DNA of 64,000 nucleotides from a virus, in the IMG/VR virus record IMGVR_UViG_3300032046_000014, positions 20,304 to 84,303 of that record. One strand, 5' to 3'. Position numbers and translations under genes: made by a program. A model generated the notes under the pieces. That model was not told the origin of the DNA, did no database searches, and was given only the letters and a program-made list of their open reading frames with translations. This document shows positions 42,629 to 49,901 of this stretch, piece by piece (position 1 is the first letter of the stretch; every line of letters begins with the position of its first letter).

Positions 42629-42652
42629 AAAGCTGAGAATACATACTTCTGA

Positions 42653-42872
42653 GGCTGGTGTCCTTTAGCAGACTAGGCCAAGGCAGCTTCGTTCAAGCTG
42701 CTACGTTCCCGCTCCTAGGCGGGAACTAAGAACCTGCGGCGAAGGAGGTTCAAAGCACCGAGTTTTACGGTGCTAAAAGACCATTTGATCAGGTCTTGTA
42801 AGGCGCTCGGCACCCGAAGACGAAATCGGCTTCATAACCGAGGGTCGTCAGGGAGTCCCAGAGAGCCAGCCA
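42653..42872 (+). ncRNA. Candidate 220-nt structured ncRNA
   Basis: GGCTGGT/GCCAGCC-A closing stem; hairpins GCAGC/GCTGC, GTTCCCGC/GCGGGAAC, AGCACCG/CGGTGCT, AGACC/GGTCT, TCGG/CCGA. Confidence 0.65.
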
Positions 42873-42873
42873 G

Positions 42874-42921
42874 TTAGGTACCCAAAATTCGCTTTAGGCA
42901 CCTAATCAGAGTTTAGGTACC
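42874..42921. repeat. Three TTAGGYACC direct repeats
   Basis: At 42874, 42894 and 42913. Confidence 0.6.
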
Positions 42922-43014
42922 GAACTGGTGTGTCTGGAGAAGGTATGAAGCTTAAGGGCTACAGCCTCCCTGACTGAACTGAATTGAACTGCCATTGACA
43001 CAACAATGCCATAA

Positions 43015-43139
43015 ACAGGGGTGGTGTAGTCAGGCTATCGCGCTGGGTCCATAAGGCTATGGTCTGGCAAGCCCAGAGATCAGAGGTTCAAAAATGCATA
43101 AGAAAAGCTTATGTGTTGAAAGTCCTCTCCCCTGTACCA
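43015..43139 (+). tRNA. tRNA-iMet(CAT) with two BHB introns (37/38: 43054-43070; 59/60: 43093-43122), CCA encoded
   Basis: A1-U72 pair, GGG/CCC anticodon stem, T-loop TTCAAAT after splicing. Confidence 0.9.
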
Positions 43140-43141
43140 CT

Positions 43142-43351: not shown

Positions 43352-43513
43352 TGGTGCAGAGGACCGGATTTGAACCGGCGCGTCCGCCTTGCGGAAAGAG
43401 GTTTCTCACAGGCTGAACAGTCGTTCCTAACCGTCCTTAGCTTCGAGCTTACGACTTGAGCTTCGAGCTGGGTCTTAAGCCTCTCGCTTTCAGCCATGCT
43501 TGGCTACCCCTGC
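43352..43513 (-). tRNA. tRNA-Leu(TAA) with a 71-nt 37/38 intron (43403-43473), CCA encoded
   Basis: Long variable arm TCCGC/GCGGA; central BHB helix CTTA/TGAG. Confidence 0.88.
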
Positions 43514-45754: not shown

Positions 45755-46336
45755 TCAGCTCCAATCGGACCGTATTTTCTGTTGTTGGATAAATTCTTTC
45801 CTGCCTTCTACACTACCGTTATATTGGACCCTTGCATAGTCGAGAAACATATGAAAAGCTTTGAGCACTTCATTTTCCAATACTTCAGAATCAAAGATTT
45901 TGGAAGGCGCTAATCTGTAGACGAACGTTTGAGTGTTTTCCTTCGACATTAAAGTGATGACCACGTCGTCTTGAAGGAGATATTTGCGCGCCCAAGACTC
46001 AAGCAATAATGCATTAGGAATCCTCCGCAGTCCCTTCAAGTCTGCTTCAGCAGCGGAGAAGCCAAGCCAGAAAGCTACATCCCTAAACTTGTTTCCCAAC
46101 ACAACATTCTCACTCATAGGCCGCTTCGCAAGATCCTCCACTGTTAACCTGTCAATATCAGCCGCAAGATAATACACAACCTTCCCCCAGCGCGCCAAAA
46201 AATTCTGCTGATCCGCAGTCAACACTTTCAACCATTCACGGTCAGAAATCGCCGGCCCTTCAGCTGGCCCCTTACAGAGATTCATCAACTGCCGAAGTTT
46301 TCTGCGAAGAATCTTGAAACAATCCTGGCCTATCAT
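45755..46336 (-). CDS. Hypothetical protein
   Basis: 193-aa ORF transcribed away from the first skew element. Confidence 0.55.
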   Translation of the reverse strand: MIGQDCFKILRRKLRQLMNLCKGPAEGPAISDREWLKVLTADQQNFLARWGKVVYYLAADIDRLTVEDLAKRPMSENVVLGNKFRDVAFWLGFSAAEADLKGLRRIPNALLLESWARKYLLQDDVVITLMSKENTQTFVYRLAPSKIFDSEVLENEVLKAFHMFLDYARVQYNGSVEGRKEFIQQQKIRSDWS

Positions 46337-46389
46337 ACGTCAGGTTCCTCAACACCGAAAACTCTTAAGATTCCACAGAATTATAAACT

Positions 46390-46945
46390 TTTCCCACAAC
46401 ACCAAAACTAAACAGCACAAACAACACAAACAGCACACACCACACATAAACACAATATCATAAAGTCACAAAAGACACAGAGCAGCAAAAATAGAAGAAG
46501 CAACAAAAGACCCTCCGGCACCGCGTCAACGCCGTACACAAAATACACGCCGTCCACAACATCAACACCGTACACAAAACTTGTTACCCACCCCATCACC
46601 TACTAACCGCCCCTTCACCCGCCTACCCATCCTACACCATCACCTACCAAACTCTCCAACACCACCCCAACAGTCCAAAAACAGAACCCACCAACCCACA
46701 AACACAATCCCCCCCACAACATAGCGGGTGGTTTAATTGTTTATTCAATTATTTGTCATTTTGGTTGGTTTGTTGGTTGGTTTGTTTTAGTGTTAACTGT
46801 TGGTTGGTTTTTCTGTTTGGTTCGGTGTTATGGTTGGTTCGGTTCGGGTCTCTTGTTTGGTCACTGCAGAAAATCGTTAGGCTTTTTCTGGAACGGTTTT
46901 CTGTGTATCGTTATGGTGAGTTTAATTGTTTATTATCCTTTTTTG
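46390..46945. other. AC-rich to GT-rich compositional switch element 1 (centre about 46722); candidate origin
   Basis: About 330 nt strongly depleted of G/T, then strongly G/T-rich; coincides with the gene-strand switch. Confidence 0.6.
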
Positions 46946-46959
46946 CGAAAAGTATATAT
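46946..46959 (+). promoter_or_regulatory. BRE-TATA promoter of the rightward early operon
   Basis: CGAAAAGTATATAT. Confidence 0.65.
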
Positions 46960-47022
46960 TCTTCCGTGTGTACCATAGTAGTGTAAAAGAAAAGCACAAC
47001 ACGGAAAAAAGGTGAGAAAAAA

Positions 47023-47118
47023 ATGACAGTAAAAAACTTCATCATTGGAACGCTTCTCATAAGCACAATGGCAGCGATAACCTACTATTTCACCTTTATG
47101 TATAGGTGGTTCGCATGA
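47023..47118 (+). CDS. 31-aa single-TM peptide
   Basis: AGGTGA RBS; MTVKNFIIGTLLISTMAAITYYFTFMYRWFA; ATGA overlap with the next gene. Confidence 0.55.
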   Translation: MTVKNFIIGTLLISTMAAITYYFTFMYRWFA

Positions 47119-47642
47119 ACAGCGATTACCTAAGCGTCAACAAGACAACTGGAAAACCACACTATACATACGGACAGAGCCAACAATGCCATGAACGGGA
47201 GCACGGACTGTTCTTTCATCCGAGAACGGGAGAAAAGATAGTTTGCCTAAGCGAAGCCAACATACGATATAAGACGATCTGGAAGCCAAAAGCGGAACGC
47301 ATGATCGTCAACGGTGACACGGTGATCAAGGTTCCAAGCACCGACAAGGTCAACGGCACAATACCGCAAACAGCTTATCACCGAATAGTAAACGCGATAA
47401 CGGAAACACCAGTCAAGGTATGTAAGACGGGAGACGGTCACACGTTCCTAGAGAATCCCGCAGCATGGCAGCTTAAAGCGGTCAACACTAAGAAGCACTT
47501 TTACGGAGAACGCAAGCATGGATACGCAAGCAAGGCAATAATCGAGGCACACCAACAACCAAGATGGAGACCGCCAGAAAAAGAAGCACCTCATAAGCTG
47601 AGGATAAGCAGCAGCGGTAAACTCAAGCTCTGCAGAATCTAA
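47115..47642 (+). CDS. Basic hypothetical protein
   Basis: ATG 47115 after a GGTGG RBS. Confidence 0.6.
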   Translation: MNSDYLSVNKTTGKPHYTYGQSQQCHEREHGLFFHPRTGEKIVCLSEANIRYKTIWKPKAERMIVNGDTVIKVPSTDKVNGTIPQTAYHRIVNAITETPVKVCKTGDGHTFLENPAAWQLKAVNTKKHFYGERKHGYASKAIIEAHQQPRWRPPEKEAPHKLRISSSGKLKLCRI

Positions 47643-47966
47643 GCGCAGAGTTGGCAAGCGGAACCTAAAAGGTTCATTCCGCAAGCCTCGAGCACTGGGA
47701 ACCTTTGAGAAGCCTAAGTTTCCCTTGGCGAGAAAATCCGCTGAGAAGCCATAGCTTTTCAATCCTAGTTATTCCCTTCGGAGAATAGCTACATACGCAA
47801 GCTCTTTGCGTACGACGGACTGACCCGTAGTGGAATGAAAGTCCGAATCCACGAAATTTTAGTAGTGGATCAAAAAGGGAGAAAATAATAAAGCCCAAGC
47901 CCATGGGCACACATCCAATTAATGACAAAGTTTTCATTAATCCGCAAAGCTCGACAACTTTGCGCT
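47642..47966 (+). ncRNA. Candidate large (325 nt) multi-hairpin ncRNA
   Basis: 12-bp closing helix AGCGCAGAGTTG/CAACTTTGCGCT, inner TCGAGC/GCTCGA, at least eight hairpins. Confidence 0.75.
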
Positions 47967-48043
47967 AAGGTGAAAACTTAAACAAAGATATTATACGATG
48001 AGGTCGCCAGTAGCGCGGCGACTGAGCTAAGCTCCTAACATTC

Positions 48044-48108
48044 TTTTTTCTATTCTCCCTAGCAAGGGATTGACAATGACCGTGAAACTCGGTCGAAAAT
48101 AGAAAAGG
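48044..48108 (+). ncRNA. Type III hammerhead ribozyme, U3-A8 variant; predicted cut after C48055
   Basis: Stem III TTTTCTAT/ATAGAAAA, UUC site, stem I TCCCT/AGGGA, core TTGACAA+T, stem II GACCG/CGGTC, GAAA. Confidence 0.8.
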
Positions 48109-48224
48109 ATGGTGATATAAAGAATGTTAAGCGGAAACCAAGCTCGAAAACTTCGCCTTAGAATACTCGGCGAAGACCAGTACAAGATCCTCATGCAACT
48201 GCATGGACGGAAGGTGAAGACGCA

Positions 48225-48467
48225 ATGAGAATACCAGTAGGCAATAGTTGTTCATGGCTTCCAGCTGAAGCGCTCGCAAAGATCACGAAGCTGCAGCTGT
48301 ACCGTGAAAGATGCATGAACTGGAACGTCAAAGCCTTCATGCCTAAGCAGGAAGCGGCGTTGGTAAGAGTTCCTATGACAGCGAAGCCACAGGAAACATT
48401 AGCGAGCCTGTTTGAACGATTGCAGATTCTCACAGACAAGATGGATGAAGGGCTGCAAAAATGTTGA
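48225..48467 (+). CDS. Hypothetical protein
   Basis: AGGTGA RBS. Confidence 0.55.
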   Translation: MRIPVGNSCSWLPAEALAKITKLQLYRERCMNWNVKAFMPKQEAALVRVPMTAKPQETLASLFERLQILTDKMDEGLQKC

Positions 48468-48868: not shown

Positions 48869-48881
48869 CCCTTCCTTTTGT

Positions 48882-48954
48882 GGACCGTAAGTTGAGCAGC
48901 CTCCACGACGGCGCGGTCTGGAACAGGATTATTCACCTGTACTAAGTGCTCAGC
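48882..48954 (+). ncRNA. HDV-like self-cleaving ribozyme 1; predicted cut 5' of G48882
   Basis: P1 GGACCGT/GCGGTCT with G1.U; P2 GTTGAGCA/TGCTCAGC; P3 GCC/GGC; L3 TCCACGAC; P1.1 CC/GG; P4 ACAGG/CCTGT; J4/2 ACTAAG (catalytic C48942). Confidence 0.92.
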
Positions 48955-48987
48955 AGATTACCTGCAGGTGCAGGAGGTGAAACAAAG

Positions 48988-49821
48988 ATGATGAAAAAGC
49001 AAGTTGCGATACTTCTGGTTGCTGCATTGGCAACTGTACTTGTAGCTTCAGCCATAGTCAGCGCATGTGATCCTCCCAGATGTCCACCGGGTCCTCAAGG
49101 ACCAATTGGACCAGCAGGTCCTAAAGGTGACAAAGGAGATGTAGGAGCAACTGGCCCAACAGGACCTCAAGGTGCAACAGGAGCAACAGGACCAGAAGGT
49201 GCAATAGGACCAATGGGTTCTCAAGGACCCAGAGGAATAAGAGGACCGCAAGGTGAAACAGGATCTCAAGGGCTAACAGGACAGGCTGGAATCAACGGAA
49301 CCGATGGAGTTAACGGAACTGACGGAGTCAACGGAACAGATGGAACTGACGGAAAAGACGGTTCCACTTGGTATAATGGAAACGGCACAGCAACTTCAGA
49401 CTTAGGCAAGGATGGAGACTACTACCTACAAACAACAAACGGTGACATCCTCTACAAGATAGAAGGAACTTGGACTTTCCTGATGAACATCAAAGGCTCC
49501 GATGGAAGCAATGGACTCAACGGACTCGATGGACTCAACGGACAAGACGGCATCGATGGGAAAGACGGAATTGATGGTCTCAATGGAACAGATGGAGAGG
49601 ATGGTAAAGATGGACTTGACGGTCTTAACGGACAAGATGGACTCGATGGAGAAGATGGATTCAACGGACAAGACGGCAATGATGGAACAGACGGAATGTC
49701 TGCACAATCTTCAAGCGGATGCGATTGCAAACTATTGATTCTAATGCTCTTCCTGACCATGATAGCAATCTGGATAATCGCAATCAAAATGCTAAGGTGC
49801 AAGTGCAAGCAGCCCAACTAA
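48988..49821 (+). CDS. Collagen-like surface protein (signal peptide, Gly-X-Y repeats, C-terminal TM anchor)
   Basis: GGAGGTGA RBS; two Gly-X-Y blocks; several NGT sequons. Confidence 0.88.
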   Translation: MMKKQVAILLVAALATVLVASAIVSACDPPRCPPGPQGPIGPAGPKGDKGDVGATGPTGPQGATGATGPEGAIGPMGSQGPRGIRGPQGETGSQGLTGQAGINGTDGVNGTDGVNGTDGTDGKDGSTWYNGNGTATSDLGKDGDYYLQTTNGDILYKIEGTWTFLMNIKGSDGSNGLNGLDGLNGQDGIDGKDGIDGLNGTDGEDGKDGLDGLNGQDGLDGEDGFNGQDGNDGTDGMSAQSSSGCDCKLLILMLFLTMIAIWIIAIKMLRCKCKQPN

Positions 49822-49843: not shown

Positions 49844-49901
49844 GAGTTGCAAGCTGAGACGCCTCCACGTGGCGCAACTTGGAATACGCGAAGAGCTCAG
49901 C
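49844..49901 (+). ncRNA. Minimal (P4-less) HDV-like ribozyme 2; predicted cut 5' of G49844
   Basis: P1 GAGTTGC/GCAACTT with G1.U; P2 GCTGAG/CTCAGC; P3 GCC/GGC; L3 TCCACGT; GG; J4/2 CGAA. Confidence 0.85.

Follow-up and report, generated by a model that had tools for sequence, protein, structure and literature searches.

Here we describe a 325-nt, hairpin-rich element on the + strand of a viral genome, within a 64,000-nt stretch (hereafter the window) that comprises bases 20304-84303 of the linear 84,303-bp IMG/VR record IMGVR_UViG_3300032046_000014 (completeness estimate 78%). The element (47642..47966 in window coordinates) is structured and non-coding, its stems are under purifying selection, it lies in an operon and it belongs to no known family. 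It is almost certainly functional; we hold with high confidence that it is a selected structured element, and most likely it is a structured RNA of an uncatalogued class.

We quantify the strength of the fold through comparison with shuffled sequence. The minimum free energy (MFE) of the + strand RNA is -111.9 kcal/mol, and not one of 100 dinucleotide shuffles folds as well (z = -6.42). A second shuffle set gives z = -7.3 for the element, and 25 evenly spaced 325-nt segments of the genome have a mean z of -0.86 (sd 1.41). In a whole-genome, GC-corrected MFE scan the region is among the most structured, exceeded only by the tRNA region with its large structured RNA. Base-pair probabilities resolve three helices, the terminal P1, the small P1a and the inner P2, as well as about eleven local hairpins (H1-H8), and the domain with all of its hairpins persists when 566 nt are folded together. 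A preliminary description, made from the letters of the window, had proposed a large structured RNA here, with a 12-bp terminal helix, an inner TCGAGC/GCTCGA helix and eight hairpins filling a non-coding gap. All of these helices are present in the sequence where it placed them.

The gap is indeed non-coding. The element starts at the last base of the upstream gene's stop codon (TAA, 47640-42), with zero gap between the two, and stops occur in all three + frames. On the minus strand there is an 87-aa open reading frame (ORF) at 47674-47937, which we reject because the relative L002 carries 1-nt indels inside it and does not keep it. An intron that would extend the upstream ORF is rejected as well: the stop codon is retained either way, and homologues of the upstream protein end at the same residue.

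The preliminary description could match the element to no known class, and this holds in a search of Rfam 15 (4227 models, including GOLLD, ROOL, RNase P, SRP, tmRNA, 6S, riboswitches and self-cleaving ribozymes), where the element scores below every gathering score. The whole window gives four tRNAs only at gathering scores, a 1-kb search at E<=10 gives three junk matches, and the element alone under lax filters gives SNORD14 (15.6 bits) and MIR477 (13.5 bits), both on the minus strand. The element fits none of the riboswitch or T-box models in Rfam, and ribozyme models (hepatitis delta virus (HDV)-like, hammerhead, twister and others) find nothing within 47630-47980; HDV-like motifs further downstream reach 21-22 bits in a like search.

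Particular classes were also considered individually. RNase P RNA is recognised by a long-range P4 helix that joins the CR-I (GAAAGUCC-like) segment to CR-V; in the element, GAAAGUCCG at 47836-44 pairs locally with CGGACU 20 nt upstream, there is no CR-V-like partner near the 3' end and no model matches. SRP RNA, tmRNA and retron readings are rejected on the lack of a model match and of a reverse transcriptase, and a template of a diversity-generating retroelement, or a repeat, is ruled out because there is no second copy. An enrichment of CGCAAGC proves to be only apparent, because two of the copies sit in the conserved ERKHGY codons of the upstream gene.

Now we consider what the relatives say about selection. 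The one full homologue of the element is on the 17-kb IMG/VR contig L002, which encodes an upstream protein of 92% identity, and this copy folds at z = -5.71. The window and L002 disagree at 42 of the 178 third codon positions in the adjacent gene (24%), against 18 of 325 positions in the element (5.5%) and 11 in the other 157 nt of the spacer; because divergence is so far below that of third codon positions, the whole 481-nt non-coding spacer is under much stronger constraint than silent sites. The element is about 4x less diverged than silent sites and its hairpin stems are about 30x more conserved than third codon positions. Sorted by predicted structure, the differences fall on 13 of 146 unpaired positions, 2 of 138 positions in hairpin stems and 3 of 41 positions in long-range helices (stems versus unpaired positions, Fisher p 0.006). 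One of the two hairpin-stem differences is a loop insertion assigned to a border base, so that the sole true stem change is from G.U to G-C, in H2b.

A third lineage, X9, comes from groundwater and was recovered by aligning Logan contigs to the region, with its changes listed up to 47751. It shares the G.U to G-C change with L002 and, in H2c, carries the compensatory substitutions G47728A and C47741T (G-C to A-U) together with a rewritten loop. The loops of H2b, H2c and H2d differ in all three lineages (those of H2b read CTAA, AAGAA and AATAG across the three variants), and a fourth fragment, X8, keeps the stem of H4 and changes its loop from GCTCT to AAACT. Since stems are kept or compensated and loops are rewritten, selection acts on hairpin formation: it is the stems, not the loops, that are selected.

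The relatives also bear on the overall shape of the element. The preliminary description had it closed by the 12-bp helix and the inner helix; both can be read in the window, but the relatives break P2 and the outer part of P1. In L002, G47645A puts an A.C mismatch into outer P1, X9 has G47643A plus an inserted G, and the inner 8 bp (47646-53/47955-62) is the only part of P1 unchanged in the relatives. For P2, C47952T and G47953A in L002 leave one wobble and one break, T47688C in the fragment X6 breaks the end of the helix, and the MFE structure of L002 is without P2. RNAalifold favours different long-range pairings, themselves at chance level. With outer P1 and P2 broken in relatives, an array of independent hairpins fits better than one closed large fold.

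Strand and molecule can be compared in the same way. With RNA parameters the z-score is -6.4 on the + strand versus -4.0 on the minus strand, and with single-stranded DNA (ssDNA) parameters it is -5.05 versus -4.54. Six internal G.U pairs are valid on the + strand only and one on the minus strand only, the flanking genes are all on the + strand, and one hairpin (H3) is capped by a cUUCGg loop, whose stability is RNA-specific. RNA over ssDNA, and + over minus, are thus favoured modestly and not decisively, and we think it probable that the element acts as a + strand RNA. The preliminary description had named a large non-coding RNA or an ssDNA signal as candidates: a structured, selected and unclassified element is what we find, RNA on the + strand is the modestly favoured of the two, and a single closed large RNA does not fit. 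The parts of the element and the features around it are collected in Table 1.

Table 1. Features of the hairpin-rich element and of the operon around it (window coordinates).
Feature	Coordinates	Strand	Basis
Element, about 11 local hairpins, non-coding, 325 nt	47642..47966	+	fold z, Rfam blank, divergence from L002
P1, 5' strand, pairs with 47955-47966; 12 bp with one G.U	47642..47653	+	pairing probability 0.96
H1, outer stem GCGGA/TCCGC, inner ACCT/AGGT	47658..47682	+	pairing probabilities
P2, 5' strand TCGAGC, pairs with GCTCGA 47949-47954; doubtful	47688..47693	+	pair-breaking changes in relatives
H2b, GAAGC/GTTTC hairpin	47709..47722	+	pair list, relatives
H2c, TTGGCG/CGCTGA hairpin	47725..47744	+	X9 comparison, pairing probabilities
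H2d, GAGAAGC/GCTTTTC hairpin; loop different in each of three variants	47743..47760	+	pair list, relatives
H3, 9+2-bp hairpin with one U.G, one C.A mismatch and cUUCGg tetraloop; identical in L002	47766..47791	+	
H4, TACGCAA/TTGCGTA hairpin	47794..47812	+	pairing probabilities, X8
H5, CGGACT/AGTCCG stem, cap CUGA...AAUGAA; K-turn/K-loop resemblance, non-canonical	47816..47845	+	motif read by eye
H6, ATCCAC/GTGGAT hairpin; L002 and X9 have a common 1-nt loop deletion	47847..47870	+	
A-rich unpaired linker, most variable part; 6/22 positions differ in L002	47871..47892	+	
H7, GCCCA/TGGGC hairpin	47893..47908	+	pairing probabilities
H8, ATTAATGA/TCATTAAT hairpin	47918..47941	+	pairing probabilities
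P1, 3' strand	47955..47966	+	pair list, pairing probabilities
BRE/TATA-like promoter GCGAAAAG TATATATT of the rightward operon through the element	46945..46961	+	read from sequence
Upstream orphan gene, 175 aa from ATG 47115 (178 aa from GTG 47106), stop TAA 47640-42	47115..47642	+	
Linker, 77 nt, small hairpins 48003-08/48017-22 and 48024-27/48031-34	47967..48043	+	
T6 run (48044-49) inside hammerhead-like three-way junction, 65 nt	48044..48108	+	MFE

How could such an array act? We tentatively propose that it is the structured 3' tail, on the + strand, of the first early messenger RNA of the virus, a hairpin array that stabilises this message or survives as a stable RNA. This reading as a whole falls somewhat short of probable, and the 3'-tail role in particular is held a little more cautiously still. 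Transcription would start from the promoter near 46950, where a TATA-like box is preceded by a TFB recognition element (BRE), and pass through the 31-aa and 175/178-aa genes into the element, which would then form a long 3' tail of about eleven independently folding hairpins, loosely held together by at most a short terminal helix. The RNA would end some 80-90 nt past the element, either because the T6 run terminates transcription in the archaeal manner or because the hammerhead-like junction cleaves itself; it is because either route would place the end here that we read the array as a structured 3' tail. (The T6 run at 48044, 78 nt downstream of the element, is the only run of five or more T on the + strand between the promoter and 50085.) The array may then serve as a nuclease-resistant 3' domain that shields the upstream message from 3' exonucleases, or it may outlast the message as a stable RNA derived from the 3' untranslated region (3' UTR).

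Structured blocks placed at a message's 3' end, immediately behind a stop codon, also occur in the exoribonuclease-resistant RNAs (xrRNAs) and subgenomic RNAs (sfRNAs) of flaviviruses and in bacterial small RNAs derived from 3' UTRs, and exonuclease resistance with build-up as a stable fragment is what the element, as proposed here, would have in common with xrRNA and sfRNA. Unlike these, it is without the defined ring-like pseudoknot, protection would be in the 3'-to-5' direction, the host is archaeal and the element is known from sequence.

Several points weigh against the 3'-tail proposal, in which transcription, the 3' end and the stabilising role are inferred. At 325 nt the element far exceeds what an exonuclease block needs, and a second array in the same genome (42645-42975), with seemingly its own promoter, favours a stand-alone RNA gene. 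Rfam hammerhead models do not match the downstream junction, even when 96 nt are searched. The terminal helices that would define one RNA domain find no support in the relatives. The MFEs of the two strands are nearly equal (-111.9 versus -110.9) and the strand asymmetry of G.U pairs has p ~0.06, which keeps the strand evidence modest. Finally, the comparators are only 5-8% diverged, and covariation amounts to a single compensatory pair from the X9 changes listed up to 47751.

A different role for the same fold would be that of a stand-alone, trans-acting non-coding RNA that is cut from the early transcript and serves proteins as scaffold, sponge or decoy (host RNA-targeting defence being one conceivable target), an archaeal-virus counterpart of the phage RNAs GOLLD and ROOL or of the stable T4 species RNAs. 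We regard this as unlikely, although several features suit it: the size and multi-hairpin build, a terminal helix whose core joins the ends, possible ribozymes nearby and the second array of ~330 nt (z = -7.27, with its own TATA-like box) beside tRNA genes 4.7 kb away. Moreover, a 56-nt stretch from H1 onward (47657-47712) shows no change among the window, L002 and X9, its loop included, which suggests sequence-specific recognition. However, there is no promoter motif upstream of 47642, no 5' processing signal was found, and Rfam scans of 46000-47700 and of the element itself detect no ribozyme. No covariance model (CM) matches, outer P1 is broken in relatives, and most loops change freely, in contrast to ROOL and GOLLD, where loops and junctions are conserved. 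A more elaborate form of the idea is appreciably less likely again: a ~400-nt hairpin-array RNA of a new archaeal-virus class would be cut free by the neighbouring variant hammerhead, perhaps be ligated or made circular by the host RtcB while P1 holds its ends together, and would act in trans on a host RNA-binding or defence protein, as its decoy or scaffold; it would be one of several ribozyme-associated devices in this lineage.

The nearest known kind are the phage and prophage RNAs GOLLD and ROOL, two large non-coding Rfam families of unknown function. Like them, the element is a candidate virus-encoded RNA of more than 300 nt, with many stems, non-coding and in a genome with tRNA genes. 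It differs in belonging to an archaeal virus, in being about half their size, in having no CM match, in its unsupported long-range helices and in that its own promoter is not seen. The junctions and loops of GOLLD and ROOL are conserved; the element's loops vary between variants that are 92-95% identical and its stems are fixed. GOLLD and ROOL often lie beside tRNA genes, and here, in a viral genome, a tRNA cluster lies 4 kb away on the other strand. The build of the element is unusual in its combination of many fixed stems and free loops, in an operon with HDV-like and hammerhead-like motifs. Should it prove to be an RNA, it would give a way into the processing and stabilisation of early transcripts in these viruses, and it would bring an archaeal large structured RNA family into a catalogue made up mostly of bacterial ones. 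For the present its rarity limits that value: the known variants number only three, are nearly identical, come without exception from sediment or groundwater and lack a cultured host. To our knowledge, almost nothing is known of the non-coding RNAs of archaeal viruses.

The signal could also reside in the DNA, as hairpins extruded from ssDNA for priming or replication initiation, or as palindromic protein sites near the strand switch at 46390-46900, and this we consider quite improbable. Folding as ssDNA is significant on both strands (the z-scores of -5.05 and -4.54 given above), conserved stems with free loops suit any hairpin-forming signal, and a region of unusual AC/GT-rich divergence lies 0.7 kb upstream. 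The ssi/G4-type priming signals of plasmids and ssDNA phages are likewise clusters of hairpins, 100-300 nt long, in which the stems matter and not the loops. These signals, however, act on ssDNA of a defined strand at origins; the element has no mapped origin nearby, and its wobbles and UUCG loop point to RNA. The six internal G.T wobbles on the + strand become A.C on the other strand, so a duplex or cruciform would be weakened. The best z-score comes from RNA parameters on the + strand and the cUUCGg loop is stable as RNA. In addition, eleven different palindromes would require many binding proteins, and two genes lie between the element and the strand-switch region.

More improbable again is that the element regulates the downstream genes as a leader or switch, in which alternative folds would choose between termination at T6 (or folding of the 48044-48108 junction) and read-through. 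The preliminary description had suggested alternative pairings because TCCGC recurs for a single GCGGA, and these counts are correct within the element: TCCGC occurs three times (47678, 47737, 47941) and GCGGA once (47658). Further repeated complementary half-sites are also real (GGAACCT twice, GAGAAGCC twice), RNAalifold on two sequences returns a competing long-range fold that pairs 47674-82 with 47831-39 and GCGGA with the third TCCGC, and the T6 run lies 78 nt past the element. In X9, however, the compensatory change pairs the second TCCGC locally with GGCG (47727-30) and so supports a local hairpin, not an alternative pairing. We reject the 9-bp long-range complement 47674-82/47831-39 as chance level, about one being expected per 325 nt by our estimate. 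No riboswitch or T-box model matches, as noted, and between the array and the T run lie 80 nt with two more hairpins.

Last, a miniature inverted-repeat transposable element (MITE) inserted on the stop codon with terminal inverted repeats, a target-site duplication and no viral function would account for the 11-12-bp terminal inverted repeats (12 bp with one wobble), the CTAAG (or TAA) directly outside both ends (47639-43, 47965-69; a possible 3-5-bp flanking duplication), the typical MITE size of ~320 bp, the strong predicted fold and the absence of the other hairpin array from its site in a relative. We consider it very improbable because the element is single-copy in the 84-kb genome, occupies the same site in all three variants and diverges in a pattern other than neutral decay (4x below silent sites, concentrated in loops, with purifying selection on internal stems), and because CTAAG, being nearly self-complementary, can equally be read as an extension of P1. 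No other copy turned up when IMG/VR, JGI metagenomes and 185,579 species genomes were scanned by pattern.

The reach of these scans, and of those made with the upstream protein, is as follows. Protein-pattern scans with the 178-aa protein and its alignments find only L002 and L003 in IMG/VR, and the same protein queries have no match in JGI metagenomes or in the 185,579 species genomes. DNA-pattern scans find none in JGI metagenomes and only L002's contig in IMG/VR; in the species genomes they give one chance match, inside coding sequence of a high-GC Conexibacteraceae metagenome-assembled genome. A search with the AAA ATPase gene as bait came back empty. GenBank phage records contain neither a DNA match nor a match to the 178-aa protein, and 22 magrovirus-like IMG/VR records (capsid ~50% identical) have neither the 178-aa protein nor the element DNA.

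The virus itself encodes a terminase, portal, protease and HK97-type capsid protein, which marks it as a tailed virus. Its major capsid protein (PF17236) has ~31% identity to Haloarcula tailed viruses and 26% to a Methanofastidiosa virus, and is ~50% identical to that of several hundred magrovirus-like IMG/VR contigs. Magroviruses are tailed viruses assigned to Marine Group II archaea (PMC5434244). On these sequence comparisons the carrier of the element is an uncultivated archaeal tailed virus related to magroviruses. Archaeal traits can also be read in the letters: a tRNA gene with a long intron, a BRE/TATA-like box and an (A)GGTGA Shine-Dalgarno sequence before every + gene start of the region. 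The viral DNA is found in sediment metagenomes, with a ~92% identical variant in a groundwater metagenome, and there is no RNA run among the listed public runs matched to it. The magrovirus literature that we searched mentions neither ribozymes nor non-coding RNAs.

Upstream of the element, the operon holds a gene for a 31-aa membrane peptide and then the orphan gene, whose start is probably ATG 47115, with its own Shine-Dalgarno sequence. The orphan protein has an invariant basic C-terminal motif, SGKLKL, in addition to ERKHGY. Its family has a handful of members in 5.8 billion clusters and about a dozen relatives among 1.8 billion representatives, and more distant relatives in Logan/ENA (P0002-P0006) are 63-39% identical. 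It matches nothing in Pfam or PHROGs, an Atlas search gave no usable lead, and the AlphaFold model of the 178-aa protein is poor (predicted local distance difference test, pLDDT, 38). Before the promoter, 46390-46900 contains ~330 nt of A/C-only-like sequence that switches near 46722 to G/T-rich, with the promoter directly after; a 77-aa ORF at 46753-46986 is probably spurious.

Within the element, H5 is worth describing beside the kink-turn or box C/D-like site of L7Ae, which has a three-nt bulge and tandem sheared G.A/A.G pairs between a canonical and a non-canonical stem. By eye, CUGA...AAU-GA in H5 fits the tandem G.A and the bulge, with an extra A in the non-canonical stem and a canonical stem of only 2 bp.

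Downstream, the 65 nt of the junction (48044-48108) show a single change relative to L002. A hammerhead is defined by a three-way junction whose cores read CUGANGA and GAAA and which is cleaved at a UH site; in the MFE structure the junction offers a GAAA core and a UUC site, and its other core reads UUGACAA plus an extra U, which departs from the consensus. Part of the same junction (48059-48088) weakly resembles the CRISPR repeat family DR36 (15.4 bits). Next comes a 34-aa ORF at 48124-48228 (+), with a GGTGA Shine-Dalgarno sequence 8 nt upstream, which is probably a real small gene because L002 keeps it: a single residue is replaced, one further change is synonymous and an in-frame deletion removes 3 nt. 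The early operon, and not the virion module, also encodes a collagen-repeat protein at 48946-49821 (+; PF01391, E 3e-30). The next two spacers, which flank this gene, hold full-length, sub-threshold matches to HDV-type ribozymes at 48880-48954 (22.3 bits, RF00094) and 49844-49900 (21.5 bits, RF02682), both + and with a common CCUCCACG core.

The second hairpin-array RNA candidate (42645-42975, +, ~330 nt) has a terminal helix around 7-8 back-to-back hairpins and a stronger fold than the element studied here, with RNA z-scores of -7.27 (+) and -5.17 (minus). A TATA-like AAATATAAAAG lies ~25 nt upstream and the array adjoins tRNA genes; it is without sequence similarity to the element. In the relative G001 it is missing, and protein-coding sequence takes its place upstream of a conserved tRNA-like gene. 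Two hairpin arrays in one genome suggest that this lineage uses such arrays more than once. The tRNA-like sequence (43010-43140, +), 88% conserved in G001, has inserted segments (possible introns) and an encoded CCA end, and is called by neither ARAGORN nor Rfam. A 159-nt tRNA match with a long intron (43355-43513, minus strand, 31.3 bits) lies within a cluster of four minus-strand tRNA genes, two of which ARAGORN reports. Finally, a further 325-nt segment, G000:C1:14702-15026, ~5.6 kb before the window start, folds at z = -5.65 (+) against shuffles and is prominent on the minus strand too in the GC-corrected scan.

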